A DNA stretch of 61,707 bases, filler included, from Jimgerdemannia flammicorona (Eukaryota): NCBI GenBank assembly GCA_003990765.1. It is 2 parts of 2 records of this genome, joined end to end, with 100 filler letters (N's around TTAATTAATTAA, not from the genome) between each part and the next. Parts side by side here need not be neighbours in the genome. Positions count along the whole stretch, not along the records: positions 1 to 30,814 come from RBNJ01000424.1; 1 more part is not named here. One strand, given 5' to 3'. Positions 269 through 61,630 of this stretch are shown in pieces; the stretch's first letter is position 1; each line of letters starts with the position of its first letter. The translations under genes were made by a program, and so were the position numbers. The notes below the pieces were generated by a model. That model was not told the origin of the DNA. It did no database searches and saw only the letters and a list, made by a program, of their open reading frames with translations.

Positions 269-3200
269 ATGACTACTAGTCCAAGCAGTGCTAGCAGTGC
301 ACTGCCAAGTTCTGGTAACATGAACACAAACACAGCTGGAATGGGTTTCACTTCCATGATGACAAACATTCTGGCAATGGCGCCAATGTCAATGGTAAAG
401 AGGATGATTCCTGTCTTTGACGATAAGGACTATGCCATATGGGTATACCATATGAAGAATCTCCTAGAAGAATGTAGTTTGGAGGACTACTGGAAGCCAC
501 AGGTGTAAGTAACGATATATGATGCTGTGAAAGATCACAAAGCACTAAGGGAGATTATGTTCACCCTTTCGAATATGCAAATGAAGCTAGTAATCAATGC
601 TATGACAGCAAATGAAGCCTGGGAGATTTTACGCAATCACCATCAACAGGCATCCACATCAAACAGATTCCACTTAAAGGTGCAACTATTCAATCTTCAA
701 ATTAAGTCCAAGGAGAGCATCTGGGACTATGCCAATCGAGTCGACGAGCTGGCAAATCAAGTGAATTCCTTACATCTATGCTGGCGGACACCATCAAGGA
801 TGAAGACAAGGTCCTGGCTCTTATACAAGGCCTTCTCGAAGCATACAATGTGGTTGTCACTACTATGAGGGAATCCAGCAGATTATCAGATTATAAGCAT
901 GTCGTCACAAGCCTTTTAAACAAGGAAACAAGGCTAGGCAGCAACAACACCAATGAGGAATATGACAAGAAAGTATTCTATGGTGGAGCACGTGGATGAG
1001 GCAAAGGTAAGCTGAACAAAGGTCAAGGCCAGCAACGCGAGAAATTTGATGGTAAATGCTTTTACTGTAATAAGTGTGGACATTGTGAGCAGGACTGCAA
1101 CCGCAAGAAGAAGGAAAAGGGTGACCAACAGCAAGGACAACAGCAGGCAAATGCGGTGGATGCCAACAATGAAAACAGCAGTGGTGGAGGTCTATTCTTC
1201 GCAGAAGCGGTGACCTATCCATATGCAGAAACCATTGAAATAGGAGGAAATTCGGAACCAACTGCCAGTTCCACCAATGTCAGTTGCAGAGGCAATTCCA
1301 CCAATTCAACATCTACAAATCCTGGTCAACAAAACACTTTTCAGACAGTGAAAAATAGTGATGTCAATATTGGTACCAGCGCAAATGTAAGCTATATGCC
1401 GAACAGCACTTATGCATGCAGTGAAGAGGTCTGGCTCATGGATTTGGGTACAACACAGCATATGACGGCTCACTGGGAGTGGTTCTCTATGTACAAGAAG
1501 TTTGAGCATCCCATACCTATCAAGCTAGGTGACAATAATGTCATTTATGCTCAAGAGAAAGGCAACGTAGACATACATCTACATGGAAACATTGATGAAC
1601 CTTCAGGCACCTTCGTGGATATATTATACACTCCAGATATAGGCAAGAACCTCTTCTCAATAGGCCGGATAATGGCTTGCAGGGACAGAGGAGTAAATAT
1701 ATACCCAAATGGTATAATGGTAATCAATCTGAAGAATAATAAGGAGTTAATGTATACATCAAAAAAGGGAAATCTATATGCAATCAATGGCATGCCAAGT
1801 GGTGCATCATTCACATATTCTGCAACTATGACTGGAGAGGATATCTGGCGTATATGGCACGAATGCTTAGGATATATTGGCAAGACGAGCCTGGAATGGA
1901 TGATAAGGAGTAAGTCCGTATATAGTTTATCAGACTATATGCCACCAGATTTCTTTTGCGATGGATGTGCAGCAAACAAGGCTTCCCAGCAACCTTTTCA
2001 GGAATGAACAAAGTGAGTGGCTGGCATTCTCGATTTGATTCATATGGATATTTATGGCCCCATGTGAATGGCATCACACTCCGGGAAGAAGTATTTTATT
2101 ACATTCATTGATGATTATATATGCAAAGTCCATGTATATTTCATTGCAGGGAAAAATGAGGCATTCGACAAATTCCGGGAATTCAAGGCAGCTGTGGAGA
2201 ATGAGATGGAATGTAGAATACGAACCCTATGCTCAGATAATGGCAAAGAATACATCAACAAAGGTTTCAGACACTTCTTGAAGAAGAATGGTATATAGCA
2301 CTCTATGATAGCCCCTTATATACCTTAGCAAAACAGCATAGCGGAATGATTCAATCAAATGGTAGTGGAAATGGCTAGAACAATGATGAATACAGCTGGC
2401 TTATTGAAGTCCTTTTGGGCGAAAGCAGTGAATATGGCGGCATATATTTGAAATCATTGTTTCTCTCGAGCTCTAAGCAAGGATCCCAGCAAGCAATCCA
2501 GGAACGACAGCAATCTTACCCCTGAGGAATTATGGAATGGATCCAAGCCTGACATTTCACACTTACACATATTCGGAAGTGAGGCATACGTTCTGGACAA
2601 AGGTGGCAACTGAGGCAAGTTCGAACCTAAGGCAGATAAGTATATATTCCTTGGATATGATGGAGTGGGATACAGACTTTGGAACCCGCAGAAACGACAT
2701 ATGATCATTTCATGCGACGTATAGTTCAAGGAGACTAAGCAGGAAATTTATGTGGAAATTCCTATCTTGAATCTGATGGTGAATCCAACAATGAATTCGA
2801 CGGTACAGCTAGCGACATCTACACCAACTGCAAAGGCTAGCAGAACAACATCTATATCTGGAACGACACCAAAGACTATGCCAAAGACATCCTTGGGACC
2901 TATGCCAGCGAATGTACTACCCATTCAAATGACAATGAAGTTGCAAGAACCAAGGATAACAGAAATTACAGACAAGGATGATGAAGAGGATACCTCTCTA
3001 AAGGGTAAGAAGAAGTGCAAATCTGGGATAGATAACGAAGTCCAAGCAGATCTGGGAAATTACTGGAACCCACCCAAGTTATCTCGTCACAAACAACATC
3101 ACATGAACTATGCCTGCGAATGCGCTTACATAGTAACGACTGGTGAGCCAGCACACTATGACGAAGCCATTCATTTGAATGATAAAAAGGAGTGGAAAAA

Positions 3201-4721
3201 GGCTATAGATGAGGAGTATAACTCACTCATCGAGAATGACATGTGGGACTTGGTCCCTCTTCCGGCAAATCAACAAGCCATAGGATCCCAATGGGTGTAT
3301 AAAATTAAATGTGATAGCAATGGTGGCATAGAATAATACAAGGCCTGATTCATGGCAAAGGGGTATTCACAAGACTTTGGAGTTGACTATGACAAAACAT
3401 TTTCCCTGGTATTTAAGCTTACTTCGCTTAGAATACTTCTTGTGATCGGAGCCAAGTATGACTATGAGATACATCAAATAGATGTTAAGACAGCCTTCCT
3501 AAATGGAGATGTGGATACCAAACTATACATTCTTCAATCACAAGGATACAAACTCTACAACAATGAGAAGGAGTTAGTATACAGACTATGCAAAGGTCTC
3601 TACAGCATAAAACAGGCGGTGAGGCTGTGGAATCGAAAGATCAACGATTATCTCATAGAAGAGAACAGGTTCAAATGATGCGAAGCAGACCCATGCATAT
3701 ACACTTGTCATCATCCTCAGAAATGGTGTACCTGGAAATTTGGGTTGATGATATCATTCTGGTCGGGATGACAAGTGAGATCAACGAAGTAAAGGTGGCA
3801 TTATACAAGAAGTTCAAGATGACAGATATGAGTGACGCATCTTTTCTTTTAGGGATATCCATTGTATGTGACAGGAGCACGCATACTATACACCTAAGCC
3901 AAGAAGCCTACATTCAGACAATACTCAAGCGATTTGGCATGAGCGAGTGCAAGCCAGTCGGAATACCGATGAAGACATCTGTGAGATTAAAGAAGTCTGG
4001 AACTACGCTCGAAAATAACAACATCCTCTATTGACAAGCTGTGGGATCCCTCATGTATCTTATGCTCGAGATGAGACCTGACATATCATTTGCAGTCAAC
4101 AAAGTGGTGCAATACTTGTCATGCTATGATAATTCACATTAGACGGTGGTTAAGCACATTCTTCGGTATATCAAAGGTACAGCACATTATATGCTCAGCT
4201 TAGGCAACAATGGCAAAAGAGTAAGCAGGAGTACTATAAATCTCTCTGGCATATGCGATGCTGATTGGACTGGCGACTTAGATGACAGAAGGTCTATGAC
4301 TGGATACATCTTTAAAGTAAACAATGGAGTCATTTCGTGGCAAACACATAAGCAACCTTCAGTGGCAACATCCTCTATGCAAGCAGAATATCAAGTGTTG
4401 TCAATGGCAACAAAGGAGGCTATCTGGCTTCGAGAACTGTTAAAGGAGCTGAGATATAAGTAACGGCACTCTACGCTACTCCAGCAAGATAACCAATCAA
4501 TGATTGCTTTGGCGAAAACCCCTATACATTACGCCAGAATGAAACACATTGACATACAGCATCATTTCATATGTGAATGCATGGAAAACGGCACTATACA
4601 CCTTGAATATACCCCAACAGAATATATGATGGCGGATTCATTAACTAAAGATCTTCTAAAGGCAAAGTTTGACTTATGTGTGCAAGGAATGGGTATTACG
4701 GGACTCTACGCTAGTAATTAA
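269..4721 (+). pseudogene. Copia gag-pol polyprotein with multiple stops and frameshifts
   Basis: Zinc knuckle CFYCNKCGHCEQDC (~1057), protease VWLMDLGTTQHM (~1429), IWHECLGY/CDGC, integrase KKYFITFIDD and LCSDNGKEY, RT HQIDVKTAFLNG and IWVDDII, RNase H CDADWTGD..DRRSMTG and KHIDIQHHFI. Confidence 0.95.
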
Positions 4722-5235: not shown

Positions 5236-5642
5236 AGTTACCAAATTAGTTACTTATACTTAGTTAGAAATTATAGACCAACTTGTATAAATACTCTCCA
5301 GTTTCTATCTGAAATCAAGTAGTTTTAGTTCAGTCCTTGATATAAGAATCAAGTCTTCTTCTATATATATACATTCCCCTAAGTCTTAGTAATGACATCT
5401 AAGCGACTCTAGTGTTTCTGACTAAACTTCAGAAGCTTAGCTAACTTCTACCAGAACTGAGACTGATATATAAATTACAAAGGCTTAAGTAAACCCATTG
5501 AATCTAAGTTCCAAAATGAATTCAGTCTATATATAGCAAAAACCAAGTCTCTTACAACTAAGGTTGATAAGAAAGATACTGCTGCTATAACTACTTTCAA
5601 GTGAGTGCTTCCTCAAACTGAAGGCTTCTTGGTATATTATTA
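5236..5642 (+). repeat. Possible old LTR remnant
   Basis: AACTTGTATAAATAC at ~5280 resembles the TATA region of the family C LTR (AACTTGTATAAATTAC at ~22732). No termini were identified. Confidence 0.25.
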
Positions 5643-7215
5643 TGTAGTAATCACTGAGTCCTTCAAATATATCAGATTCTCTTCAAGGTGTATCTCTTAG
5701 ACTAACTCAAGTTTATTATACATAAGTAAGTTCTTATTAGAGTATCTATCTAAGGTCTTATAGTCCTCAAACTTCTTATCTTTAAACTATCTTGTTATCT
5801 CTTTAGATTATTTGCAAGGAATTGTATATATTGCACTAAGAAGAACTGACTTTATTTTGAAGGAAATAAGAGGGGTATTTATACAAAATGTAATTCAATA
5901 ATTGCTAAGATATGTATAAAGCTAAATATAAATTCCAATAACCAATAAAATACTGAAACATAGAAAACTACAGTTGTCAGTATAGATTTCAGTATTGATA
6001 CAGATAGTTGTTCAAGTTCAGGGTACTAGTAGAATTCAGTAGTATAGGAAAAGGATGCTGGAAGAATTCTGAGTTACACAAGATCAGAATACTAGCGGAA
6101 GGATTAATGTTATATAGGAAAAGGATACTGACAGAATTCAGTATTACTAAGAACTTTAAAGCAGAATGTTCAGAACCATGGAGGCTTTATTCTCATCATT
6201 ACTGAAGGAGATGAGATCTGTAAACATTTCATCTATCTTATTATATAGGTCATATGTTTCATATATATTGTGTGGAATGATATCATCACCAATGATGTCA
6301 TCATATTTGGTGGTAATAAGGGCTCTCCAATCTATAACATTCTCTTCAACAAAATAAGAAACAAATGTGGAGTCTTGGAGAGATCTAACCTAGATACTGG
6401 GGTCTTGGAATGCTAAGATCAATTCTTACAGGAACTGATCTGGGTTGTTCTGGAGAATAGAATACCAGAACTCTTCTACTTCATCACTATTGAGAGTAAT
6501 AGTGGACTAGACCTCTGTAGCTACTATAGCTTCTAGTGCATTAATATGATGGACTGATAGATCCCTGAAGTCTGAGACTCTGGTATACTCCAAGTTAGAG
6601 ATTGACCATAGTATATATCTGAAGATCTGATGAATCTTCTTGGTTGTCCTTATTTCATATATATCCATGGGAGTGGTATCTTATAGCTCTTGAGGGCTGG
6701 CTTGAGGAAATTCCCAATAGAGGAGGTTTTCTATTTTATATTCTTACCATATATGAAGCCATTCTGTAGTAATAGTGATTCTTGTTTCCATCTCATAGTA
6801 GTAGAGAATATAATAATAAGGGTCACCAGTACCCAGGTTGACACTAGGAGTCCTTGTAGTGTAGGTCCTTATAACTCTTTGGATATCTTGGAACATCCTT
6901 TCCTAGACTGAGAGGCCTTGGTGGTTTCTTGATTTTGAGATTTGGCAGACAGCAGAAATTTTGTTTATAATAAGTCTTTGAGCTATTTCAGGATTAGTGG
7001 GTCTTATTGATTTCTGCTACTGTGATTTCTTGATCCTTCTTTTATATTTCTCAAGATGTTTATATTATAGTCCCAATGACTCATAGTTGGTTATTATTGC
7101 TCATCTTATAGTCTGAATGAGTCATACCATATAATCTTCTTGTGCTCCAATCTGATGGCTTATAAGGAAAGGCTGTCTCTTATACTGATATTATCATTCT
7201 GAGATCACTATTGCA
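5643..7215 (-). repeat. Element B 3' LTR (1573 bp)
   Basis: Direct repeat of 20513-22075, with TG..CA termini. Confidence 0.92.
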
Positions 7216-7984
7216 TCTTTCTCTTGAATAAGAATCTTCTTGAATGTCTTTATTCATTAGTCCAGTCTTGAAAAATTTGCTGATCTCATAACCTCTAGCA
7301 GGGGGTCAAAAAGTGGTATTTATAGGCTGGTATCTTCTCTATATATTTTGGTATGATGGTGAAGGATTGCTCCCTTCATATAGAGCAAGGGCCTGATTCT
7401 GATCTTGACCAATCAGTTGATAGTTTGAACTCCTTGGACTTCAAAAGTCTCATGGATGAGTAGTTGCTAGTACTATATCCCTTAGAGAATAGTCTAGACA
7501 GATTGCCTGCTGGTCACAGATAGTGCTCCCAACAAATCGAATCAAATCGAATTTGGCCCAAACTCGATTCGATTCGATCGAATCAAGGGTCCAATTCGAT
7601 TCGATTTGAATTGAATCAAAGGTCCAATTCGATTTGAAGTTTGATTTGAACCTTAATTTTCAAAATGTAATAACTCGATGAAAACTCATCCGAATTTAAC
7701 GTATTTTAGCTTGTTAGATTCACTGTATTCATGTGATTCTAACAAGCTAAAGTACGTTAGATTTGGATGAGTTTACGCTGAGTTATTGCATTTTGAAAAT
7801 TAGGGTTCAAATCAGACCCTCAATTCGATTCAACTTTCGATTTGATTCGAATTGATTCGAATTGAAAAATCCCCAATTCGATTTGACTCGTTTGAGAGCA
7901 CTAGTCACAGGACATACTATTATGATTTATAGACTAGAACCTTATAGGCAGTCATTATGTTTTACTTCTCTTATATAGGTTCAT
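6156..7984 (-). pseudogene. Element B accessory ORF of unknown function, running from the post-integrase region into and through most of the LTR
   Basis: One minus frame reads ..KILIQEKDAIV..RAIITNYESLG..YEIRTTKKIHQIFRYILWSISNLEYTRVSDFRDLS..KASMVLNILL-stop (6156), broken only by stops explicable as CAA/CAG/CGA C>T changes. The exact start is uncertain, and the region is interrupted by the MITE at 7521-7903. Confidence 0.65.
7521..7903. mobile_element. hAT-type MITE (383 bp)
   Basis: TIR TAGTGCTCCC..AATCGAATT / AATTCGATT..GAGAGCACTA, 8-bp TSD GTCACAGA/GTCACAGG, subterminal (ATTCG)n repeats and an internal palindrome at ~7650-7810. Confidence 0.88.
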
Positions 7985-8769
7985 GATACTTCTTGAGTCT
8001 GTTCCTATATACTATGATAGGAAGTATGGTCTCTGAGAGTTTTCTAAGCCAGAAGGTAGTTCTCTTGATATCTTGCACATAGAACAGTCCTTTCCATTTG
8101 GGCTCCAGTTTTCACAACCATGAGGTTTCTATACAGTAAGACCTTTTCTCTGATTTGGATGGGTTCTAGGGTCTTGTGATTCTTTTCTGCATTCTTTCTT
8201 ATCAGCACTTGTGACTTGATGATGTAATCTTCAGCCTTCTTTCTAATTTGGTGTAGTCTCCAGATTTCTAAGTCAACCTATCTCTAAGTTAGGTCTAGAT
8301 TTGTAGCTGAGATTCCATTGGAATCTTCTTCTCTAAAGAGCAGTTCTCTTGGGGTAAAGTGTGTACTCTGTAACTGTATATCTCATAGAATAGAGAGAGC
8401 AGTTGGGAGATAGTTATCCTAATTCTTGTATGTATCTGAAATCTTTGCCAGAATGTTCTTGAGAGTCTTGTTGGTTCTCTCTGTCTGTCCATTTTCTTGA
8501 GAGTAATACATAGTAGTCTTGATGTGCTGAATCTTATATTTCTGATTAGAATCTATTGACAAATTCTGTACCATAGTCTGTAGTAATTTGCTTTGGTATC
8601 TTGTAGTGATAGATGATTTCTTGATATAGGAAGTTGGCTATAGAGAGAATATTGGCTTCTTGTAATACTTCTGCTTCTATCTATTTGGTAAAGAGATCTA
8701 TAATAACTATAATGTAGCAGTTTCCTGATAGTATTACTGGTAGTGGTCTAATAATGTCTATTACAATGT
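7765..8769. repeat. Left copy of a 1005-bp direct duplication flanking the PLE
   Basis: Colinear with 13059-14063, no indels seen, about 20 differences, all transitions. Confidence 0.95.
7971..8769 (-). pseudogene. Element B integrase, C-terminal part (duplicated copy)
   Basis: KTTMYYSQENGQTERTNKTLKNILAKI and KLEPKWKGLFYV..VYRNRLKKYHEPI-stop. Confidence 0.85.
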
Positions 8770-9087
8770 AGAGGAGAAAGAAGGCCCAGCAGGAGCCAAG
8801 GGAGCAAACCCAGAGCCAGTGTCAAAGTGAACGGAAGATATGTGGAAAAGCATGTATAAGGGGAACGAACAAAGAACGTAACCGAATTTGCATCAGCCAT
8901 TTATTGCTACATAAAAATGCGGTCCTTATACAAAATATGACGTCCCAAAAGGGAGGATGCGCCACAACTCGGGGCGAACCAAATTAGGAACCACATGACT
9001 GCCAGAGATAGGTGGAGATAAAGGGGGAGCTAATCCCAGTTGCAGGATAAAAATCACAAACAAACACAAACAAAACAAATCCAAATC
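8770..9087 (-). repeat. PLE 3' pseudo-LTR
   Basis: Direct repeat of 12234-12553. Confidence 0.93.
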
Positions 9088-9089
9088 CT

Positions 9090-11130
9090 CTCTGGCAGAA
9101 CCGGAGGCACCAGAAGGTGACGAAAATGCAAAACAAGAGCAATGGATTGAAGAAGAAATAGAAGGAAGATGCGAACGAGCAATCAGAGGGCGTCAGGAAA
9201 GAGATGAAAGTCCATGGCATGAAAGAGAAGAGTGCAGGATGGTATCAGGGCATTGAGTGACCCAGCAAGTATGATCAAATGGTACAATGAGAATCGGGAG
9301 TGGGAAAGAAGAGGGGGTACAGAGAGGGTAAGGGGGGAGAGAGGGAAGGGAGGGGGGATAAAGGGGAGAGAGAAGGGAAGAGCGAACAACAGACCATTCA
9401 ACAGAAGCAAGCAGATCGTGAACAATAGAAATAGGGTAGACATGACAATGGACCACAAAGTTGCCAAGAACCTGAACAGTAGACACCCAATCAGAATGAC
9501 GGGAGCAGCATAATGCAAGACGACGAGCCTTACATTCAAGAAGAGTGTGATGAGGATAATTGGACAAGAAGTCAGGGAACTGTTGGGAATGGGGAAAACA
9601 GGAATAAACAACAGTTCGGAAGGGAGAAAGAGAAATGGAAAGGTCCAAAAAGGAGATACTAGTCATACCGTGCACCCAAGTAATAGAATGATGGGGAGGG
9701 TAGATGTCCAGGAACACACTAGGGATATCAATGCCAGTAACAGCGAAGACAATAAAGTCATCAATGTATCAGCAAAAGAAGATATCCCCAGCCCAGAATG
9801 CAATGGAAAGAGGTGAAGTAGCATCACATAATGCATGCAATTCATGGGCCAGGCCAATGAGGTTGGCAAGGGTGGGGGCACATTTCGTACCCATGGCAAT
9901 ACCAGAAGTCTGGTGAAAGGAGCCAAGGGCTGACTCAAAATAATTAGAGCCACAGATGAGGAGTGTAAGCTCAACAATGGAAGCCAGCGAAACTGGGGAA
10001 TCTAAAGGAAAAACCAAGGAACCCAGGAAGCAAAGGCAATCATCGATCTCATCAAAATGAATAGCAGTATAGAAGGAAGAGAAGTCATCAGAGGCCAAAT
10101 GGGAAAAACGGTGAACAGGTACAATGGTGGAGCAGAGAAGGGCGAGCTCCTGAGTATCATGAAGAATAGTATACTCAGGCCCAAGACAGTGTTGTAAGAG
10201 AGCCATCCAGGAGAGAAAGAAGCAGGATAACCACTTTGAAATCTCGGTGGTAGGAGAACTGTAAGCAGCCGTAATAGGACGCCAAGCCAAAGTAGGCTTG
10301 TGAACTTTAGGAAGAGCATAGAAAACCAGAAGAGAAATATCCAGGGAGGACAAAGAGTCCTGGAAGAAGTTAAAAATGGGGTTTGCAAATGGGAAATCCA
10401 AAAGCGATCTAGTGTGAGCCAGAGAAACCCAAAGAAGAGCAAGAACCTCATCCAATCCAAGAGCACTAGGCTTGTAAGCCGTGGCTCGAAGGAGGGCAGA
10501 AAGGCCATCAAGGTAGAGTGACTTAGGAATAAGTGCAAAACCCTGATTCTTATCAGTGACTGTGAGCAAATGCATAGGCAATTGCTTGACCGATTTAAGT
10601 GCAGTATGCATGACACAGTCCGAAACTAAGCAAGAGCGAGCTCATCCAGGAACAGACAGCGAGCAAGCCATGTCGAGGAATATGTAGTGTGAAGAGACAT
10701 TGGGAGGGGGGACCCAATCGCTAGGAACAAAATAGCAAGAGGGCATCTCACCACGATCTTGAAAGAAAATGGCAAGGTCAAGAGCATGATGAAAACATGT
10801 TAGACAAGCCAGATCAGTGAAGGAGAATTGTGAGGGAGTTGCAGGAAAAACAAAGTGAGGACCCAAGGATAAGGCAAAGACTTAAAGGGGAGAAAGGGGG
10901 CAGTTAGCTGAAGAAAAAGGAGGAGACAAAAGAGTTCTATGAGAAGAATAAACCTGAAAGTTCAGGACAAGCAACTGGGAAAGGCAAAGGGGGGACAACA
11001 TGAGGAACCACTCAGGGTGCACCAGAAGCGATGACAGAATCCAAGAAGGGATGGGGACACTGGGGGAGAACCATGCCAGGGGGAAGTTTAAGAGCAGGAG
11101 ACCTTCCTCTTCCCTCTGACTTTTTTTGAA
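9090..11130 (-). pseudogene. PLE ORF2 reverse transcriptase: one frame with four in-frame stops
   Basis: LSLGPHFVFP, TDKNQG, FYALPKVHKPTLAWRPI, SDDFSSFYT, QTSGIAMGTKCAPTLANL, YIDD, ISFLDLSI. ORF-track segments 10642-10866, 9769-10611 and 9193-9717 share one frame. Confidence 0.9.
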
Positions 11131-12305
11131 GGTGGCGAGCCCGACGAGCAGGAGTACACCCCATCAGAGTGCCAGACCTTGTGGCCACAGGCTTTTGTGC
11201 AGCCCTTACATTCAGGGGCATGGGTGGAGGAGGCGGAGGAGGAACCGGCGGAGGAGGCCAAAGGCGAGCGAGCAGCTGAAGGGGCAGCAGTGTGAGGAAC
11301 ACCACCATGAGGACAGATGGACTTGGCTGGGTGCCAGTAGGCATGGTGGAGGCGACTGGAGCAGACAGCACAAGGCCAGGCCCTGACAGGGTGAGAACCA
11401 AGTTGGCGGCCATGCTTGGGGGCAGGGGGAACAGAGGAGGAAGTCTTGGTGGGGGAGGGGGACTGGGAAGAGGCCGACGAAGCCTGGTTGGGCTTGGCGG
11501 GGGTCTTGGCAGGGGTCTTGGAGGGGGCCTTGGTGGCAGCAGCAGTGAAGGAATGAACCTCAGCATGAGCAGCGGCACGAGCTTCGGCGCGGATGGCCTT
11601 GGAGACCAAAACCTTGGGGGAGGCAGGCAGGGGAGCAGTGGCAGCAGCACGAGCAGCAGTGGCAGCATGTGATGACTCCTGCTCGTGAAGGCGAGCAACA
11701 AAAGAGGTGCTGGTGAGAAGGAAGCAACACACAGCATCGATGTCAGCAGCGACAGAAGGAATGTCTTGGATGGCGAAGCCACAGAAGAGGGCAGCATCCG
11801 AAAGGTGGGAGGAGACAAAGGCCACGAAAGCAGCACAGGCACGTTGGAAGGAGGTGGAAGCGGTGGCGGCGGAAGCAGCAGCGGCATCAGCGGCGGCGAG
11901 CTTGGCAGCAGCAGTGATGGCACAAACCTCTTCAGAGAGGGCTTGGCAGCAGGCCTTAGGGAGAACAGAGTAGTGGATGGTGGGCAGAGTGACGATGTCG
12001 ATGTTATGGCAGAGACGAGCCTTCTTAGCAGAGAGGGCAAGAACTGACCAGAACTGAGAGAGGAGCAGACGACCAGAAGGACGAAGGTCCAAGGGGAGGA
12101 AAAGGATGGCAGAAGTGACGTAGGTCTTGAAGGAGACAGTAGCAGGGGTGAAGGCAGGGGGAGGGGGAGGAGGAAGTTCCTCATCCATGAGCTCGTCGAC
12201 GAGGACGGAGGCCCTGAGGGCAGGTGGTACAGCAGAGGAGGAAGAAGGCCCAGCAGGAGCCAAGGGAGCGAACCCAGAGCCAGTGTCAAAGTGAACGGAA
12301 GATAT
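11088..12305 (-). CDS. PLE ORF1 (~405 aa): Ala-rich helical core, two Cys/His motifs, basic C-terminus; start codon mutated to ATA in this copy
   Basis: Uninterrupted frame. The inverted repeat copy keeps the ATG (12987-12989, MSSIHFDTGSGFAP). Motifs CAVCSSRLHHAYWHPAKSIC and CKGCTKACGHKVWHSDGVYSC. Confidence 0.75.
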   Translation of the reverse strand: MSSVHFDTGSGFAPLAPAGPSSSSAVPPALRASVLVDELMDEELPPPPPPAFTPATVSFKTYVTSAILFLPLDLRPSGRLLLSQFWSVLALSAKKARLCHNIDIVTLPTIHYSVLPKACCQALSEEVCAITAAAKLAAADAAAASAATASTSFQRACAAFVAFVSSHLSDAALFCGFAIQDIPSVAADIDAVCCFLLTSTSFVARLHEQESSHAATAARAAATAPLPASPKVLVSKAIRAEARAAAHAEVHSFTAAATKAPSKTPAKTPAKPNQASSASSQSPSPTKTSSSVPPAPKHGRQLGSHPVRAWPCAVCSSRLHHAYWHPAKSICPHGGVPHTAAPSAARSPLASSAGSSSASSTHAPECKGCTKACGHKVWHSDGVYSCSSGSPPSKKVRGKRKVSCS

Positions 12306-12569
12306 GTAGAAAAGCATATATAAGGGGGACGAACAAAGAACATAACTGAATTTGCATCAGCTGTTTATTGCCATGTAAAAATGTGGTCCTTATATACAAA
12401 ATATGACATCCCAAAAGGGAGGACACACCACAACTCGGGGCGAACCGAATTAGGAACCACATGACCACCAGAGATAGGCAGAGATAAAGGGGGAGCCAAT
12501 CCCAGTTGCAGGATAAAAATCACAAACAAACACAAACAAAACAAATCCAAATCGAGATTAAAAAACATC
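12234..12569 (-). repeat. PLE 5' pseudo-LTR (left arm of a 336-bp inverted repeat)
   Basis: Contains a TATATAAG box, AATAAA and the first 24 codons of ORF1 on the minus strand. Confidence 0.92.
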
Positions 12570-12722
12570 TGCAGACCCTGGAGGGGTGAGCATGAGTGAG
12601 GGGTGAGGCCGAAACAGAGCAAGTCACAGCAAGCCTGAGTGAAGCGAGGGGCCGAAGGCAGTGGAGGGGAGCAGAGTAAAGCCGAGACCCTGGAGTAAGC
12701 GCGAGACCCCGGAGGGGGCAAG

Positions 12723-13058
12723 GATGTTTTTTAATCTCGATTTGGATTTGTTTTGTTTGTGTTTGTTTGTGATTTTTATCCTGCAACTGGGATTGGCTCC
12801 CTCTTTATCTCCACCTATCTCTGGCAGTCATGTGGTTCCTAATTCGGTTCACCCCAAGTTGTGGTGCATCCTCCCTTTTGGGACATTGTATTTTGTATAT
12901 AAGGACCACATTTTTACATGGCAATAAATGGCTGATGCAAATTTGGTTACATTCTTTGTTCGTCCCCCTTATACACGTTTTTCCACATGTCTTCCATTCA
13001 CTTTGACACTGGCTCTGGGTTTGCTCCCTTGGCTCCCGCTGGGCCTTCTTCCTCCTCT
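12723..13058 (+). repeat. PLE inverted pseudo-LTR (right arm)
   Basis: Reverse complement of 12234-12569, separated from it by a 153-bp spacer. Confidence 0.93.
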
Positions 13059-14063
13059 GGATGAGTTTACGCTGAGTTATTGCATTTTGAAAATTAGGGT
13101 TCAAATCAGACTCTCAATTCGATTCAACTTTCGATTTGATTCGAATTGATTCGAATTGAAAAATCCCCAATTCGATTTGACTCGTTTGAGAGCACTAGTC
13201 ATAGGATATGCTATTATGATTTATAGACTAGAACCTTATAGGCAGTCATTATGTTTTACTTCTCTTATATAGGTTCATGATACTTCTTGAGTCTGTTCCT
13301 ATATACTATGGTAGGAAGTATGGTCTCTGAGAGTTTTCTAAGCCAGAAGGTAGTTCTCTTGATATCTTGTACATAGAACAGTCCTTTCCATTTGGGCTCC
13401 AGTTTTCACAACCATGAGGTTTCTATACAGTAAGATCTTTTCTCTGATTTGGATGGGTTCTAGGGTCTTGTGATTCTTTTCTGCATTCTTTCTTATCAGC
13501 ACTTGTAACTTGATGATGTAATCTTCAGCCTTCTTTCTGATTTGGTATAGTCTCCAGATTTCTAAGTCAACCTATCTCTAAGTTAGGTCTAGATTTGTAG
13601 CTGAGATTCCATTGGAATCTTCTTCTCCAAAGAGCAGTTCTCTTGGAGTAAAGTGTGTACTCTGTAACTGTATATCTCATAGAATAGAGAGGGCAGTTGG
13701 GAGATAGTTATCCTAATTCTTGTATGTATCTGAAATCTTTGCCAGAATGTTCTTGAGGGTCTTGTTGGTTCTCTCTGTCTGTCCATTTTCTTAAGAGTAA
13801 TACATGGTAGTCTTGATGTGCTGAATCTTATATTTCTGATTAAAATCTATTGACAAATTCTGTACCATAGTCTGTAGTAATTTGCTTTGGTATCTTGTAG
13901 TGATAGATGATTTCTTGATATAGGAAGTTGGCTATAGAGAGGACATTGGCTTCTTGTAATACTTCTGCTTCTATCTATTTGGTAAAGAGATCTATAATAA
14001 CTATAATGTAGCAGTTTCCTGATAGTATTACTGGTAGTGGTCTAATAATGTCTATTATAATGT
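13059..14063. repeat. Right copy of the 1005-bp duplication (includes MITE end 13059-13197)
   Basis: Matches 7765-8769. The integrase sequence continues uninterrupted beyond 14063. Confidence 0.95.
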
Positions 14064-14442
14064 GGTAGAAGGGGATAGGCTCAATTCTTGATAACCTGAG
14101 TGCTTGGTCTTACTGATCTTATTTCTGTTTTTGATACTTATTATACTCTTTGACAAATTGGTATAGGTTTTCTTCTATCTTGGGCACCACATAGTTCTTC
14201 TTGCCTTGTTATATATGTTGGTTCCTCTTAGATATCCTTGTTCATATACTTTCTTCATTACTTGATACATACTTCTTATATTTAGGTATTACAAGCTTTT
14301 CTCCTTTTCTGAGTATAGTGTTGTCTAGTTCAAACTGTTTTTATGTCTGGTTGATAATAGTGATTGTCCAGGGTTCAAGGTGGTTGTGCATCTTCTGCTG
14401 CCTAAGATAGCTGATTAATCTATAGTATAACTCCTTATTTAT
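13265..14442 (-). pseudogene. Element B integrase (separate frame from pol)
   Basis: Begins (M>I)NKELYYRLISYLRQQ and includes DIIRPLPVILSGNCYIIVIIDLFTK and NGQTERTNKTLK. Confidence 0.8.
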
Positions 14443-14808
14443 ATTGAATAGTCTTGATGGAAGTATTTCAGAGTACTCTTGAGAGTGTATCAGTATTGAC
14501 ATTAGTTCTTCCTGAGTAGTACTTGACAGTACAGTCATACTCTTGCAGCCTGTAGATCCATCTGGTATATATTCCTTTGGAGTTTAGAGTGTAGAATAGC
14601 CAGGTAAGAGCAGAATGGTCTATTTGAATAGTGAAGTATTTCCTGGCTAGGTAGTAGTAGAACTTGTCTACTGCCCAAACTACTGCTAAGTATTTGAGCT
14701 TGTATAACTTGTAGTTCTGTTCTACTCTGTGGGTACCTTGGCTTACATAAGAGATAATATATTTATATCCATCTTTCTTTTAAGCTAGGACTGCCCTAAG
14801 TTCTATAA

Positions 14809-14811
<3 letters not shown>

Positions 14812-14840
<29 letters not shown>

Positions 14841-16131
14841 CAAGTATGAATCATTTATTAACTATCTATAACATGCCACATATCCTCATATAACATCAGT
14901 AGTCCCATTCTACCCCAATCTCAACCCACTCCCAGTCTTGTACCTTTAGGGTGTGAGTTGTGACCTCACTGCCCGAGTAACTAGATCCTCCTACCTGGCC
15001 TGCCCCACCCAGTAGGTATGGGTTGTAAGCCCCAACCACCTCAAGTACTTGGCATCTAGTGCACCTGACCTACCCCTATTAGTGCCTTCTGTCTTGCCCA
15101 TCTAGCCCATCTTGCCTGCCTATATTGCCTGTGTTGCCATCTTGCTGTCTTGCCCATCTTGCCTATCTTGCCTGTCTTGCCCACCTGTGTTGCCCATGTT
15201 GCCCGTATTGCCTATATTGCCCACCTGTGTTGCCCATATTGCCCATCTTGCCCGTGTTGCCCATGTTACTCATCTTGCCCATCTTGTCCATCTTGCCCAT
15301 CTTGTCTGCCCATATTGCCCATATTGTCCATATTGCCTGTTTTGCCTGTTTTGCCTGTTTTGCCTGTTTTGCCTGTCTTGTCCATGTCATCTGTCTTACC
15401 ATCTGCCCATCTTACCCATGTCACCCATCTTGCCATCTTGCCCTTCTTGCCCATCTTGCCCACTCATGTTGCCCATATTGCCCATGTTGCCCATGTTGCC
15501 CGTGTTGCCCATGTTGCCCATATTACCCTCCTGTGTTGCCTGTGTTACCCATGTTGCCTGCCCATGTTGCCCGTGTTGCCCGCCCATGTTGCCGGTGTTG
15601 CCCATATTGCACATTTTGCCTGTTTTGCCTATTTTGCCTGTTTTGCCCATTTTGCCCATTTTGCTCATCTTGCTCATGTCTCCTGTCTTGCTGTCTGTCC
15701 ATCTTGCCCATATTGCCCATCTTGCCATCTTGCCATCTTACCCGTCTTATCCATCTTGCCCGTCTTGTCCATCTTGCCCATCTTGCCCGTCTTGCCCATC
15801 TTGCCCATGTCACCTGTCTTGTCATCTTGCCATCTTGCCTATCTTGTCCATCTTGCCTGTCTTGCCTACCCATATTGCCCATGTTGCCCGTGTTGCCCGT
15901 GTTGCCCATATTGCCCATGTTGCCTGTATTGCCCATTTTGCCCATGTCGCCTGTCTTGTCATCTGCCCATCTTGCCTATATTGCCCATCTTGCTGTCTTG
16001 CCATCTTGCCCATCTTGCCCATCTTGCCCATCTTGCCTGTGTTGCCCATGTTGCCTGTATTTGTTTCTTCGAGTTATATGTAAAACCGTTGCTTGAAGTT
16101 TGTGTAACGCGAATTGTACCGGAGAGAGATC
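14812..16131 (-). mobile_element. Non-autonomous poly(A)-tailed retro-insertion (~1320 bp) in RNase H of element B
   Basis: T29 at 14812-14840, AATAAA on the minus strand just upstream of the tail, and a perfect TSD AAGTTCTATAATAC(TT) at 14798 and 16132. Confidence 0.88.
15088..16059. repeat. Degenerate 9-bp minisatellite (GCCCATCTT / GCCCATGTT / GCCTGTTTT variants)
   Basis: About 970 bp of tandem 9-mers with shorter variant units. Confidence 0.95.
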
Positions 16132-17274
16132 AAGTTCTATAATACTTGTATCTATCTGCAGAATGAACTCTAGGTTCCAATCTGGTCTTCTGAAGATAGA
16201 TGCTTGGATCAATCTGATCTTGAGTTCATTGAAGGTTTCTTGGTATTTCTTGGTCTATTCAAATTTGGTCTCCTTCTTCAGTAGCTCATAGATGGGTGCT
16301 GTAATATTAGAGTATTCTTTGATGAATCTTCTATAGTAGGAGGCCAGTCTAAGGAAGGCATGGACTTCCATAGTTGTTCTGGATCTTGGATAGGCTGCAA
16401 TAGTCTCAATCTTCATGGGATCTATATAGATTCTAGTCTGATTGATGAGGTGTTCTAGATAGGTAATTTCCTGAGCTGCAAACTTGTACTTCTTGGGCTT
16501 AATGTAGAGGTCATGCTCCTTGAGCTTCTTAAGGGCTAGCTGTATATAGTTGATATATTCCTGTACAGTATTGCTAAAGATGATTACATCATCAATATAG
16601 ACAAAGAGCCATTTTCTAATCTCATTGCTGAAGACTCTATTCATCATTTGCTGAAAACTTACTGGGATATTGCATATTCTAAATGGTATTCATAAGTAGA
16701 TATAGGTGGCATCAGATATGATAAAGGCTGATTCTCACTAGTATCTTGAGTGAGACCAATCTGATAGAAATCTGAGACAGATCTAAGGTGGTATAGTATT
16801 TGGCTTCACTTCTAAGAGTGGTAAGAATTTCTTGAATATTTGGCAAGAGCTACCTATCCTTCTTAATGATTGCATTGAGCTTCCTGTAGTCAACACAGAG
16901 TCTTGGGACAAACTCTCCAGGCTTACTTTTTTTCTTTGGAACAAGGACAATGAGTGAAGCCCAGAGACTGATAGCTTGCTTAATAATTCTAGCTTCTTTT
17001 ATTTTCTTGAGTTCTGCTTATAGCTATTCTCTGTAGATAGATAGTATAGGTCTGGCTTTCTGGTAGATGGGCTTGGTATTGCTGATATCAACTTCATGAT
17101 AGTACTTGGGTTCTTGATTGTAGATATCTCTGAAGTCTGTAGTAAGTACTCCTTCATTCTGGTGTAGGATCTTGAGAAGTTGTTCTTCTAGAGAAAAGTT
17201 TTCTCCAATGGTAATGTATATTTGTTCTGGTCCTTGTTTTTCTTATGCTCTAGTTCAGTAATCTTAGTGGCAGC

Positions 17275-18290
17275 ATAGGCTCCTCTTCCAGTAGATCTAA
17301 AGCCTTGTTCTCCTCTTTTGGTCTTGATGAGTTTGATGGCTTCAGTGATCTTGGGCTTCTTGATTTTATGGATTAGTATTTGGCCAATTCTGTCATACTT
17401 CTTGACTTTGAATGGGGTAGTGGAGTTGTGATTTCTAACTATGAGAAAGATCTTTCCAGTGTAATCAGAGTCAATTACTCCTCCTTTAACTGAGATTTTA
17501 CTTTTGGCCAGACTGCTCCTGGTCTTGATAATTCCAGCATAGTTCTCTGACAACTTGACTTCAATTCTAGTACCAAGTAGAGTAGTAGTCTGTAGTTCAA
17601 GAGTAGTATCTTGAATGCTGGCAAGGTCCATTTCTAGTGCTCCAAATGAGTCAATCCAGATGGGATTCGAATTCCATCCAGATAGATTCAAATCAACCAT
17701 TGTTTTGATTTCAAAATTAGACAATTAAATGTTTACATCAATAACTTGATGAATAATCATCCAAATTTGATGATCTTAGTGACATTTGAAAGCCCTTAAT
17801 AAGGCCTTTCTAATGATATCAAGTACATTAAAATCAGATTACGCGTTGCTGATATATTAAGGAAAACATTCTATTTGATGAAATTTCCAAAATCGGTAAA
17901 TCAAACAATTTCCAAAATTGGTGATTCAGACATTTTCCTTCATAACTCAGCAACACATGATCTGATTTCAATGTTCTTGGTATCATTAGATAGGCCTTAT
18001 TAAGGGCATTCAAATGACACCAAGATCATCAAATTTGGATAATTATTTATTGAGTTATTGATATAAACATTTAATTGTCTAATTTGGAAATCAAAACAAT
18101 GGTTGATTTGAATCCATCTAGATGGGATTCGAATCCCATCTGAGTTGATCTGGATGGGATTCAATCTGAATCAATCTAAATCCAATCTGGATTAAATTGA
18201 CTCATTAGGAGTACTATCCATTTCTATGGCTCCTTCAGTCTTATATTCTGGAATCTTAGCTTCAGGGTGAAACTTCTTGATCTTGAGGAT
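17275..18290 (-). pseudogene. dUTPase domain of element B, split by a MITE
   Basis: KFHPEAKIPEYKTEGAIEMDLAS | IKTRSSLAKSKISVKGGVIDSDYTGKI..DRIGQIL..TKRGEQGFRSTG. Confidence 0.9.
17635..18216. mobile_element. hAT-type foldback MITE (582 bp)
   Basis: TIR TAGTGCTCCAAATGAGTCAAT / ATTGACTCATTAGGAGTACTA, perfect 8-bp TSD TCCATTTC (17627-17634, 18217-18224), and long internal inverted arms. Confidence 0.92.
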
Positions 18291-20512
18291 AATGTCTAGT
18301 TCTTATTCCTCCTTATCATCACTGTCAGCTTGAAGCTCTGGGGGCTGGTCATCTTCTTTGGCTTTCCTTTTTGCTTCAGCAGCTTCTTAATCATACTTCT
18401 GTTGGTGGATTTTTCTGACTTCACTGATATAAGACCAGTAGTTATTCAGATATTTAGAGCAGTACATCCTAGTATCATGGAGGCATCTTCCTTGAGGGGC
18501 ATAGCCATTGATGATCTTGTTATACTACTGCTCATCTGTGAGCTAGGGTGTCTTGTTCTTGTTCTTATTCACCAAGTGCATGAAGACTTCTGTGTCCTCT
18601 TTATTTCCTTCCTCTATGTCTGATAGAACTCCTTTATAGACATTGATATAGACTTGTACCTTTTGTTCTCTATAGTTGATTTGCATCTTCTGGACATTGA
18701 GGTCAATTATGGTCTTGGCCTTGTAAAGCCATTAGTTGTCAATAAGAATGTCATAGTTAGTGGTACTTATAATAATCATATCTACTGGGATGGTAGCTTC
18801 TCCAATCTTGTTGAGAACTTATCAGATCTTGCCAAGAAGGATAGCTTGTATACTATCTGCTGTGATATAGATCATCTTGATAGACTCTTCAATGTTCCAG
18901 CCTAGACAGTCAATTGCCTTCTTGTTTATGAGATATCCTCCAGTGCTGGTATCAATGATGGTATCAAAGATACAATCTTCAATCTGATATAGGGTATAGG
19001 CTGATGTTTTGTGCTGGTCTTCAGATTCTTTTCCTAAGTCTTCTTGATCATCTTCTTGTATATTGTGAGCTTCTATGATCTTGTATTCTTGGTTCTTGAC
19101 AGTGGTTGTAAGTCTTACTCTCAACTACTGTCTGAAGGCAGGGACTTTGGCTAGTTGTCCAAAAGTAGTATTGATCTTCTATTCCTTGAGGTCCTTGTAG
19201 ATATCATACTGGTGGATCTTGGTCTTGCACAGCTTCTATTCCTTCTTGCTTTCACTTTCTCCTGAGACTAGAGTAGTGTCTTTAATGATTTAGTAGGGAG
19301 CTTCATCTAACTCCATATCTTGATCAATCTTCTCAGATTGGATCTTACTTTGAATAGTGACAGCTGGAGTCTTCTTCAGTCTTCCAACTAGCTTGCTGTT
19401 ACTCTTCTTGTTATAGGGCTTAGACTGGGTTCTGGTACCTTTAGTAATAGGGCAGAATTCAGGCTCTTCATAGTATTCTTCATCATCAGTATCACTAATC
19501 TCCTTGATGACTACTGTGTTGGTTTATTCTCTGGTTCTAGTAGCATTACTTGGTTGGGCTTTACATCTTGTTTTGGTTATACAACTCTTTGTATTATGGC
19601 CTTCTTCTCTATATCTGAAGTATGTGATATTGTATTCTTCTATAGTAGCTACAAATCTCTATACTGGTCTCCTGTTGGTGCTTTAAACTTCTCTAACAAT
19701 ATCACTAAAGTATGCAGTCATCTTGGCAAACTGCTTGGTGAGTTCCTCTACTGGATCAGCTTTGGCTGCCTTGGGGATAGGTGGGGATGTTTGTCTGTTT
19801 ACAACTATAGTAGATATGTATGATACTAGTTGGCTTTGATGGCTCTATCTTAATACCAGTTATTTTCTCTATTGAGTGTTCAGCAGAGTGTCTGGCAGTC
19901 CAATATCTCTGTGCAAAGACCACTTTCTGATCAAGGGTCAGTACAGCTGGGGTAGACCAGATTGCTAGAGCAATTTCAGAGTGAACTCTTTTGATGAAGA
20001 TTGAATTTACTATTTGTTCCTTGAGGCAGTCATAATAGCTAGCCAAGATAATCCAGTGGTAGATTTAGGTATAGAATGAGTTGGGATCTTCACTGAGTCT
20101 CTGACAGATAGTGTTGAGTTAATTCTTGAGAGCTTGCTTAATCTTTTCAGTATAGTATATAGTTCTGAGGAAGGTCTTCATGTTGCCAAGTTTGGCTGCA
20201 CCAGTATTAGCAATAGTGGCTATATTGAACTTGTCTCTGGTAGGTCCTCTGAGGCTGACTGGTAGAAGGGCCAATTGTGCATCTATATTGAGGGCTCATA
20301 CAGTGGCAAATTGTTCAAAGTCTTCAATGAAGGTCAGGATTGACTCTTCAGTAGTATATTTATAGAATGTGGGGGGACACATTTCAACCTTATCTTGAAT
20401 TCTTATAGGGGTGACTCTTGTAGTCAGGGTAGTTGTTGTGGTAGTTATTCATTTTTTAGCTTGAAAGTGAGGGATTCATCTTGAATCACCAGCCAATGGG
20501 TATCAAGTTATA

Positions 20513-30814: not shown

Positions 30815-30914
30815 NNNNNNNNNNNNNNNNNNNNNNNNNNNNNNNNNNNNNNNNNNNNTTAATTAATTAANNNNNNNNNNNNNNNNNNNNNNNNNNNNNN
30901 NNNNNNNNNNNNNN
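30815..30914. other. Assembly gap with artificial TTAATTAATTAA linker
   Basis: 44 N + TTAATTAATTAA (30859-30870) + 44 N. Confidence 0.97.
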
Positions 30915-36624: not shown

Positions 36625-36636
36625 ATAATTTTTCTG

Positions 36637-38357: not shown

Positions 38358-38394
<37 letters not shown>

Positions 38395-55948: not shown

Positions 55949-56199
55949 AAGTATATGATCCTTTCACTGGTAATATTCAGGTGACACAAGACTTAGATAA
56001 CACTTTCTGCAATATTTTTGGTAAAAGGAGACTATCAATATAGACAGCAATGACTATACTGGTGAGTATATCAGCCAGAGAGGCAGCAGTGCCTTTGACT
56101 AGCAGTATGTTGGAAGGAGACAGGGAGATGGTTTGGGGATGCCAGAGCCTTCAATGGTTGGTCGCAGCATTGGTGGTGGAGGGAGAGGTGAATTGAGGC

Positions 56200-57938: not shown

Positions 57939-57968
57939 TGGGGCTCTCACTATCAAACATTATTCAAT

Positions 57969-60900: not shown

Positions 60901-61630
60901 TCAGCTTGGCAATGGAATGGAATGTATGAGGGGGCTCGTGGGTGACATGTGGCCTGATGCATGGCAAAGAGTAGGGATTGGCAAGGAGTGGAACTGGAAT
61001 GGTATCTGGCCTTGGAGCAAGCAGGTAATGTAATGGCTTCCCCCCAAGTTCTGGGTGGTATGGTGGAGGTTCCTAAGGCGGAATGTGATGCTGAACTATC
61101 AGTCAGGGCACTTGGTGGAAGATGGTGCATTTGATTGTGAGGAATGCATAGATATTGGCCAGAAGGGGGGAGTGGTACAAATGCCAGAACATTGGCTAGG
61201 TGAGTGTGAAGTTTTGGGAGAGTTTTGGCACAGTATTTCTAGCAGACTGAGATTGCAGCCCCTGGTGGGGGGGGATGGAGGGAGATGGGGGGACCTCTAG
61301 CAAAGGTTAGTTGGTGGGGTGGGAGATAAATGGTTGACCTTGCGATGGACCCTGGCAATTTAGATAGAGATGGCTGATCATTGGCTTCATGTCTTTGAGA
61401 AGGGCCAGCAGGTTGGAATTGGAGCTAGGGTAGTATGTTGGGAATGGTTAATACTTGACATTTTGAATAGTTGGTGGAGAGGGTGGAGACCAGGTGGGGG
61501 GGGCTATCAGAACCTGGTGAATTGTATTTGTAAAAAGATTGGAGAGAGGGTTCAGGTGATAGTTGGTTGGGTTGTCCTTCAGCAGAGAGAGATAGAGAGT
61601 AGTGAGGGGGATCTGAGGTGCATTGGCTGA
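57969..61630 (+). pseudogene. LINE ORF2 (APE + RT + C-terminal CCHC)
   Basis: RIFSLNMNGLRG, LGSDFNIV, TAPGEDRL, FLDQEKTYNRV, GVPQGDPLLPILY, AFADD, CEEC..PEHWLGEC. Confidence 0.92.

Follow-up and report, generated by a model that had tools for sequence, protein, structure and literature searches.

How a retroelement without an endonuclease of its own comes to lie at an internal site, exactly between two kilobase-long copies of the same host DNA, is the question raised by this locus of Jimgerdemannia flammicorona, and it bears on the mechanism of Penelope-like element (PLE) integration. The whole stretch of DNA analysed here, hereafter the window, measures 61.7 kb. It contains a PLE of 4289 bp within positions 8770-13058, whose sense strand is the minus strand, a correction to a preliminary description of the locus.

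That description had reported a 1005-bp repeat with about 20 transitions and no indels, bracketing the PLE, and ungapped comparison bore this out. The left copy of the duplicated host segment (7765-8769) and the right copy (13059-14063) form a direct repeat of 1005 bp with 20 mismatches, all of them transitions, and 0 indels. Likeness is lost immediately outside the repeat, where 20/25 positions differ leftward and 14/21 rightward, and both copies adjoin the PLE termini with zero bases between them, as a target-site duplication does. The left boundary of the repeat is ambiguous by 1 nt, since BLAST adds one base to it, a T found at both 7764 and 13058, and the T at 13058 is also the terminal base of the PLE. 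Before insertion, the segment was presumably single-copy.

The surroundings of the duplicated segment bear on its origin. A 1.57-kb direct repeat detected by self-BLAST at 5641-7215 has its partner at 20511-22075, and the two are probably the LTRs of an older host retroelement that encloses the PLE and carries a dUTPase ORF (17188-17724, minus strand). Since this LTR pair is just 86% identical, the host element would be much older than the PLE insertion. Self-comparison and folding also revealed an imperfect palindrome of 273 bp (7592-7864, with arms at 7592-7723 and 7733-7864), the right arm of which spans the left duplication edge at 7765, so that the left flank and the duplicated segment are natural neighbours. 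This geometry speaks against the very improbable reading that the 1005-bp repeats did not arise from PLE insertion at all, being instead LTRs that belong to an LTR element, or else a tandem duplicate of older date with a PLE at its junction. With a 4.3-kb RT-coding interior between direct repeats of roughly 1 kb, the arrangement does look superficially LTR-like. However, the left edge of the repeat cuts a palindrome that continues outside it, and, for an old tandem duplicate, an exact hit on the junction would be a coincidence of about 1 in 1000, to which the matching ages would have to be added. The LTR reading of the flanks was rejected because the repeat lacks the usual TG...CA ends, no short matching duplication lies outside it, and its inner edges adjoin the inverted termini of the PLE rather than a primer-binding site or a polypurine tract.

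Within the PLE, two direct pseudo-LTRs and one inverted copy were found, all three ending at the identical nucleotide in the alignment. The 3' pseudo-LTR (8770-9089, minus strand) is 320 nt long and ends outwardly at 8770, the counterpart of the RNA 3' end. In the 5' pseudo-LTR (12234-12569, minus strand), alignment and BLAST distinguished 320 nt in common with the 3' copy (12234-12553) from 16 nt in common only with the inverted copy, to which the likeness continues as far as 12569. The inverted pseudo-LTR (12723-13058, plus strand) is 336 nt long and has at its outer end, 13058, the same terminal nucleotide as 8770. Since the three copies start at one and the same alignment column, the outer ends of the PLE are an identical nucleotide in opposite orientation, as the preliminary description had stated. 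The head-to-head joint, which that description placed at 12722/12723, may instead lie at 12569/12570, because the 153 nt between the head-to-head copies (12570-12722) belong to neither repeat. This spacer is GC-rich (63%) and has no other match within the window. As a 90%-identical contig from another sample, a soil metagenome, covers the spacer region (12606-12736), it is probably element-family sequence, namely a 5' leader, rather than random filler.

Fixed inverted termini, to which the preliminary description refers, are not new but part of the typical Penelope layout, in which two direct pseudo-LTRs are accompanied by an adjacent inverted one (PMC3846280, PMC8557442). As described in these sources for Pen2a_Av of Adineta vaga and Penelope of Drosophila virilis, the present element has one RT frame between direct pseudo-LTRs, an inverted pseudo-LTR on the 5' side that leaves the insert bounded by inverted repeats, an ORF start inside the upstream pseudo-LTR and a direct target duplication immediately outside. 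Canonical Penelope, however, encodes a C-terminal GIY-YIG nickase, and insertions with the inverted layout carry duplications of 8-10 bp (PMC3846280), whereas the present element has no endonuclease and lies within a duplication of 1005 bp. Unlike canonical Penelope, too, the present copy has no 30-40-bp 'tail' at either end, and no hammerhead ribozyme was detected. The preliminary description mentioned long duplications in some algal PLEs; the pertinent sections of PMC8557442 say only that PLE target duplications are often not discernible.

We next consider the coding capacity of the element. A decayed RT reading frame (9196-11163, minus strand) holds a DKN-type N-terminal motif, the RT motifs and YIDD, and is interrupted by internal stops at 10882-10884, 10642-10644 and 9769-9771. 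These motifs align with those of relatives and, together with the pseudo-LTR layout, identify the element as a PLE, in agreement with the earlier assignment. The only Pfam match on this decayed frame was a weak one to RVT_1, and a search of solved structures returned generic reverse transcriptases only. Upstream, in a frame other than that of the RT, a Pro/Ser/Leu-rich open frame (11012-12343, minus strand) begins with an ATG at 12343 within the 5' pseudo-LTR; it has no Pfam match and is possibly open merely through the pyrimidine-rich composition of its strand.

The absence of a GIY-YIG domain after the RT, also noted previously, held in both a Pfam search and a six-frame motif scan of the element. 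The RT frame stops about 190 residues past YIDD, and the alignment of the closest relative reaches 9172, 83 nt short of the pseudo-LTR. There are 1939 homologues with E<=0.001; full-length relatives have about 600 residues and end soon after the thumb. Of the 65 best homologues scanned with Pfam, 5 carry a GIY-YIG domain and the best 16 all lack it, while a motif scan located it C-terminal to the RT in 24 of 151 sequences. In a FastTree phylogeny of 75 rows of database proteins, for which the program warns of long branches, the query RT pairs with P0002 (support 100) within a five-member clade whose members all lack the GIY-YIG domain (support 96), and 10 of the 11 endonuclease-bearing rows group in one distinct 19-row clade. 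The element and its nearest relatives thus represent an RT lineage without a GIY-YIG endonuclease; an endonuclease-bearing partner may nevertheless act in trans. The nearest named relative is fungal, from Racocetra fulgida. A cluster look-up of 20 proteins recovered this name and that of Stenamoeba.

Endonuclease-deficient PLEs are described mainly from telomeres. No telomere arrays of at least 2 units occur in the window, which holds scattered single hexamers only, and the 3' end of the PLE is pyrimidine-rich and unlike telomere repeats. The insertion site is thus internal, not telomeric, within the window, and the junctions are devoid of telomere-type repeats, as had been observed before. 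The hammerhead core motif, CUGANGA...GAAA, is absent from both strands of 8770-13058, and no Rfam match was obtained at E<=1 in 7000-15000. This absence is not decisive, since the copy is decayed and hammerheads occur in all PLE groups except Naiads and most Chlamys (PMC8557442). With fungal and other Coprina and with rotifer Athena, the element shares an RT without endonuclease, a DKN-type N-terminal motif and terminal direct repeats. Coprina and Athena, however, are reported from telomeres or their vicinity, with telomere repeats on either side and with reverse-complement telomere repeats and a hammerhead at their 3' end (PMC8557442, PMC13159263), whereas the present copy is internal, ends differently and, unlike them, has the inverted head-to-head layout.

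If the duplication was made by the insertion, flanks and pseudo-LTRs should be of the same age. The pseudo-LTR pairs differ at 23/318, 22/318 and 27/320 positions, all transitions, of which 17, 15 and 22, respectively, fall at ancestral CpG sites; non-CpG divergence is 1.9%, 2.2% and 1.6% in the same order. The 1005-bp flanks, which were CpG-poor already (7 CpG observed versus 31 expected), diverge by 2.0%. Non-CpG divergence of the pseudo-LTRs (1.6-2.2%) therefore equals that of the flanks, and a one-event origin fits, although equal divergence could also be seen if the flank copies were alleles or close paralogues. After insertion, C-to-T-type transitions would have decayed the copy and created its in-frame stops.

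Taken as a lead rather than a result, because it concerns one decayed copy known from an assembly of a repeat-rich stretch, this combination of features is in our view probably, though by no means certainly, explained by priming without an endonuclease at two 3' ends that lay 1005 nt apart on opposite strands, in a single event. The anatomy, the common terminal nucleotide, the missing endonuclease, the internal location and the equal ages are observed directly; the double priming is inferred. An endonuclease-less PLE would have entered a non-coding part of the older LTR-type element, its RT beginning cDNA at the 3' end of the element RNA, with two host 3'-OH ends that were already present, at 8769 on the top strand and at 7765 on the bottom strand, as primers. 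The first priming would have produced the long copy, from 8770 to about 12569, and the second the short copy, which begins at 13058 and runs back to 12723, or as far as 12570 should the spacer be its leader. The two cDNAs would then have been joined head to head, and fill-in synthesis would have left the 1005-nt segment on each side as a very long target-site duplication, the segment being duplicated because both primer strands held the same 1005 nt. Both outer junctions lie at the RNA-3'-end nucleotide, as is characteristic of cDNA whose synthesis began at two DNA 3' ends facing outward. The integration reading of the preliminary description is supported in part (a PLE, no endonuclease, an internal site, both junctions at the RNA-3'-end nucleotide and a duplication of the same non-CpG age), but the inverted termini are not new. 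Candidate sources of the two ends would be nicks, two sister-chromatid ends, a free fragment or stalled nascent strands. To our knowledge, no PLE enzyme has been shown to displace a 1-kb duplex between two nicks, which counts against the mechanism.

Retroelements lying exactly between direct copies of host DNA that far exceed the customary few to 20 bp have precedents in R9 of rotifers, HERV-K HML-2 and tumour L1. The target duplication of R9 reportedly measures 126 bp. For HERV-K, duplications reach up to 250 bp (PMC5488345), and in the L1 model the cDNA joins a second 3' overhang elsewhere (PMC7058536). The L1 cases combine one target-primed end with one repair junction and are somatic, whereas at the present locus cDNA began at both junctions, the PLE has no endonuclease, and the insertion is an old one (2% decay) in the germline. 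The literature searched did not report any kilobase duplication flanking a PLE, though earlier PLE papers may hold one, and 1005 bp would exceed any germline retroelement target duplication found described there.

In another reading, the priming is the same and the ends do not belong to one duplex. The cDNAs may have bridged sister chromatids cut 1 kb apart, as published for L1-flanked tumour tandem duplications (PMC7058536), or a free 1-kb fragment with a cDNA at each end may have circularised head to head and re-entered by homologous recombination. Attachment to exposed chromosome ends has been described for PLEs that lack an endonuclease (PMC8557442, PMC13159263); a linear fragment has exactly two outward 3' ends, and the observed order is a circular permutation of 'copy-segment-copy'. 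We nonetheless consider this origin unlikely, as it calls for a longer series of steps than a pair of nicks in a single duplex would and the ends must escape resection for both junctions to stay exact, while no sequence feature sets it apart from priming within a single duplex.

Look-alike contigs from a soil metagenome run bear on whether one event is needed at all. The run has a word share of 0.07, and its short contigs were placed at 90% likeness, which positioned 1069 of them on the window, 226 fitting two places. Both the PLE and its flanks have look-alikes that are 90-99% identical. No joint was reported; among the short contigs listed, none spans a junction with at least 31 letters on each side, and parts of the PLE are uncovered. 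The abundance of look-alikes would suit two separate PLE insertions in the same orientation, the one at the left and the other at the right edge of the segment, which struck two alleles or two nearly identical host-element copies and were followed by a homologous crossover within the 4.3-kb element or by a switch of the assembler between haplotypes or copies there. Any pair of insertions defines a 'duplicated' segment, so that exact coincidence is unnecessary; alleles would likewise fit 2% divergence without indels, and complex PLE structures frequently give assembly problems (PMC8557442). Yet this scenario needs two rare same-orientation insertions within 1 kb of each other in 98%-identical copies, whereas most host-family look-alikes are merely 90-95% identical (631/1069), and the near-equal distances among the three pseudo-LTRs are expected for one event and not required by two. 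We therefore hold it to be improbable, on a par with separate ends. In metagenome scans, an invariant pseudo-LTR 21-mer gave 0 matches, and an alignment of endonuclease-less relatives gave 408 stretches, of which 237 were confirmed and 76 loci kept. These loci are merely 22-31% identical, and the 12 of at least 5 kb proved on self-comparison to be mostly head-to-tail tandem arrays, none informative on long duplications in the PLE family.

Double priming in a single event would have consequences beyond this copy. What is unusual here is the combination of an endonuclease-free RT lineage, an internal site and a duplication far beyond 8-10 bp, the inverted layout being already known. The cleavage properties of the nickase are held very likely to determine tandem and inverted pseudo-LTR structures, and mechanistic work has been called for (PMC8557442). 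That a PLE of an endonuclease-free lineage displays the complete inverted layout at an internal position speaks for double priming by the RT as sufficient in itself, provided that no partner contributes the nickase, and the 1005-bp duplication would offer a definite and testable view of how insertion proceeds without an endonuclease. Only tentatively, and with considerable doubt, do we extend this to a regular non-telomeric entry route for endonuclease-less PLEs, whose RT would prime on any two exposed opposite-strand 3' ends at any distance, such as those at nicks or at stalled strands close to hairpin-forming palindromes, and would yield the inverted layout along with target duplications from hundreds to thousands of bases in length. 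Were such a route true, the inverted layout would stem from the RT and its RNA rather than from the GIY-YIG nickase, and endonuclease-less PLEs would generate tandem duplications of host DNA on the kilobase scale.

In the more specific proposal of the preliminary description, the priming 3' ends would belong to the nascent leading strands at a replication bubble of 1 kb or, alternatively, to nascent strands that had stalled. Palindromes of the strongly folding kind are generally known to stall replication, and the present one, inside which the left end lies, folds as DNA at -87.5 kcal/mol (z = -16.2), with 0/200 shuffles as good; diverging 3' ends also match the geometry of a bubble. However, the left end is located about 100 nt inside a palindrome arm, not at its base, and the right end has no comparable structure. 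The sequence bears no origin mark, so that a bubble origin is conjecture, and extension of nascent strands alone does not integrate the product into the parental chromosome. We rate this proposal as decidedly unlikely, well below separate ends or two insertions, and favour double priming at two opposite-strand ends without specifying a replication origin. The palindrome itself also gave sub-threshold matches to hairpin miRNA-precursor models.

The 4289-bp Penelope-like element (PLE) has the minus strand as its sense strand and is inserted between two direct copies of a 1005-bp host segment (7765-8769 and 13059-14063). These copies differ at 20 positions, all of them transitions, with no indels, in agreement with the preliminary description. 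Sequence likeness breaks down directly beyond both repeat edges, and BLAST extension leaves the left edge uncertain by one T (7764/13058). Since the left end of the duplication falls within the right arm of an imperfect, MITE- or foldback-like palindrome of 273 bp (7592-7864; folding energy -87.5 kcal/mol, z = -16.2), the left flank and the duplicated segment are shown to be natural neighbours. A nick or stalled strand could conceivably have arisen from the palindrome; no comparable feature was found at the duplication's right end. Plant hairpin miRNA-precursor models matched the palindrome only below threshold (best 57.8 bits, gathering score 144), and a second, smaller hairpin-like stretch occurs at about 7527-7640.

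The insert carries three 320-nt terminal repeats, namely, the 3′ (8770-9089), 5′ (12234-12553), and inverted (12739-13058) pseudo-LTRs. All three start at the same alignment column; both outer ends of the insert are therefore the identical nucleotide, facing outward, as had been proposed. Two direct pseudo-LTRs with an adjacent inverted one form the typical layout of the Penelope examples described in PMC3846280 and PMC8557442, where the target duplication measures 8-10 bp, so fixed inverted termini are a trait of the family rather than a novelty. The 5′ and inverted copies both end at column 336 and have 16 extra bases in common that are absent from the 3′ copy. Between them lies a GC-rich spacer of 153 bases (12570-12722) that has no second match within the window. 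It is probably PLE family sequence, as hinted at by a contig of 131 nt from a different sample, which at 90% identity spans 12606-12736 and extends into the inverted copy by no more than 14 nt; the spacer is perhaps a 5′ leader belonging to the short copy. On that hint, the short product would measure 489 nt and the head-to-head joint would fall at 12569/12570, instead of the 336 nt and 12722/12723 initially given. A 14-nt motif recurs in direct orientation near both spacer ends (13/14 identical), with a third similar copy. The window holds only one PLE copy. Its sense strand is very pyrimidine-rich over 9000-12700 (plus-strand AT skew reaching 0.47, with a GC skew of about 0.3), an asymmetry that leaves several PLE frames open by chance.

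The reverse transcriptase (RT) frame runs from 11163 to 9196 on the minus strand with three internal stops, and its product displays YIDD along with a DKN-type motif and the standard RT blocks; the upstream frame has its first ATG (12343) within the 5′ pseudo-LTR. A word-index search with this RT returned five relatives (top 46% identical, one with GIY-YIG), and a full HMMER scan gave 1939 matches at E ≤ 0.001. Pfam detected a weak RVT_1 match in the PLE and nothing else, and a six-frame motif scan of the element revealed no GIY-YIG. Two motif matches elsewhere in the window were treated as chance, one containing stop codons and neither lying in a recognised gene. The RT frame stops about 190 residues past YIDD, and the nearest relative's alignment reaches 9172, 83 nt short of the pseudo-LTR. 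The domain sits about 250 residues beyond the catalytic motif in endonuclease-bearing relatives, which leaves no space for it here. Among the best 65 of 150 listed homologues, Pfam found GIY-YIG in 5 and in none of the top 16; the motif scan was positive for 24 of 151 sequences. A FastTree phylogeny was built on 75 rows, the first by rank among sequences of at least 380 residues, shorter ones being left out. The query pairs with P0002 (support 100) within a five-member clade that also holds P0007 (Racocetra fulgida), P0008, and P0009 (support 96), none of the five with a GIY-YIG domain, while 10 of the 11 motif-positive rows fall in one separate 19-row clade. The rows hold no named Coprina or Athena references, and FastTree warned of long branches and odd composition, query included. 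From these sequence comparisons, we conclude that the PLE belongs to a lineage without endonuclease.

Like other PLEs, the element has an RT and pseudo-LTRs, but neither Rfam at E ≤ 1 nor a core-motif scan detected a hammerhead in it. It resembles endonuclease-deficient PLEs in having no nickase but does not share their telomeric habit: the 3′ end is pyrimidine-rich without relation to telomere repeats, and the whole window contains single hexamers only and no telomere-type array, consistent with the reported absence of TTAGGG-type repeats at the junctions.

The pseudo-LTRs differ from one another by transitions only (72 pairwise), mostly at ancestral CpG sites: 23/318 between the 3′ and 5′ copies (17 at CpG; non-CpG divergence 1.9%), 22/318 between the 3′ and inverted copies (15; 2.2%), and 27/320 between the 5′ and inverted copies (22; 1.6%). 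The flanks are CpG-poor (7 observed versus 31 expected), and none of their 20 differences lies at CpG, giving 2.0% divergence. The gap in raw identity (92% for pseudo-LTRs, 98% for flanks) is thus attributed to the decay of CpG sites in an insert that was once rich in them, and flanks and pseudo-LTRs look equally old. This apparent equality, together with the rough equidistance of the three pseudo-LTRs, is what a single event would predict. CpA/TpG contexts account for 12 of the 20 flank differences, compared with 119 of 355 C/G sites overall. Short look-alike contigs from a soil metagenome, aligned to the window at 90% likeness, show 149 listed differences, 134 of them transitions, with A or T in the window and G or C in the contigs for 99 of these. 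Repeats of this genome evidently decay by C-to-T-type change, whether from deamination of methylated cytosine or from a RIP-like process. The old host sequence shows strong depletion of CpG.

At both outer ends, the element joins its flank through the nucleotide equivalent to the RNA 3′ end, and the simplest reading is that cDNA synthesis began twice, as the preliminary description had suggested. The primers would be a top-strand 3′-OH at 8769 and a bottom-strand 3′-OH at 7765, a geometry as in ordinary target-primed reverse transcription duplications but with a stagger of 1005 nt, and completion would require strand displacement across the segment. Junction pairing could involve at most 1 nt on the left and none on the right, making priming independent of homology. 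The shared 5′ end at column 336 suggests that both cDNAs extended to a fixed 5′ end of the RNA; the short one would then derive from a short transcript of the pseudo-LTR or from template switching between the two repeats. Candidate sources of the ends are a pair of nicks, two sister chromatids, nascent strands, and a free fragment that was recombined in later, and L1 provides a precedent for a tandem duplication bridged by cDNA, as described in PMC7058536. If two separate insertions had struck the two segment edges in different alleles or copies, a subsequent crossover or assembler switch inside the 4.3-kb element would yield the identical picture with no coincidence required. The long-duplication insertion comes from a single locus in an unverified assembly. 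No kilobase duplication around a PLE was found in the literature searched, with key older PLE papers outside it. The longest target duplications in the literature searched are those of R9, reportedly "exceptionally long" in the wording of a title, and of HERV-K. The latter are described as 250 bp in PMC5488345.

The surroundings consist of nested retroelements, with copia-type domains (about 1000-4000), gypsy-type elements with dUTPase (about 23.9-33 kb), and a minus-strand dUTPase ORF (17188-17724), all connected by large diverged repeats. The PLE and its flanks are located inside a direct repeat pair of 1.57 kb (5641-7215 and 20511-22075; 86% identical), probably the signature of an old LTR element. 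The dUTPase domains at 17188-17724 (minus) and 27330-28250 (plus) are embedded in LTR-type retroelements, and the closest database relatives carry dUTPase together with RT or integrase domains of copia type. A 9-bp unit repeated about 109 times (71% matches) at 15092-16055, inside the host element, leaves each of the three plus-strand frames uninterrupted over more than 320 codons. Two 44-N runs spaced by 12 bases (30815-30858 and 30871-30914) lie within a gypsy-type element, and two further blocks (35000-41000 and 56000-61000) have a GC skew of 0.4-0.55. Two metagenome scans did not find the PLE family. Five loci on long metagenome-labelled contigs (L020, L046, L073, L056, and L045) hold distant relatives of endonuclease-less type (22-26% identity), forming near-identical head-to-tail tandem arrays spaced at about 3.2 to 6.1 kb, the repeats being 99.5 to 99.99% identical.
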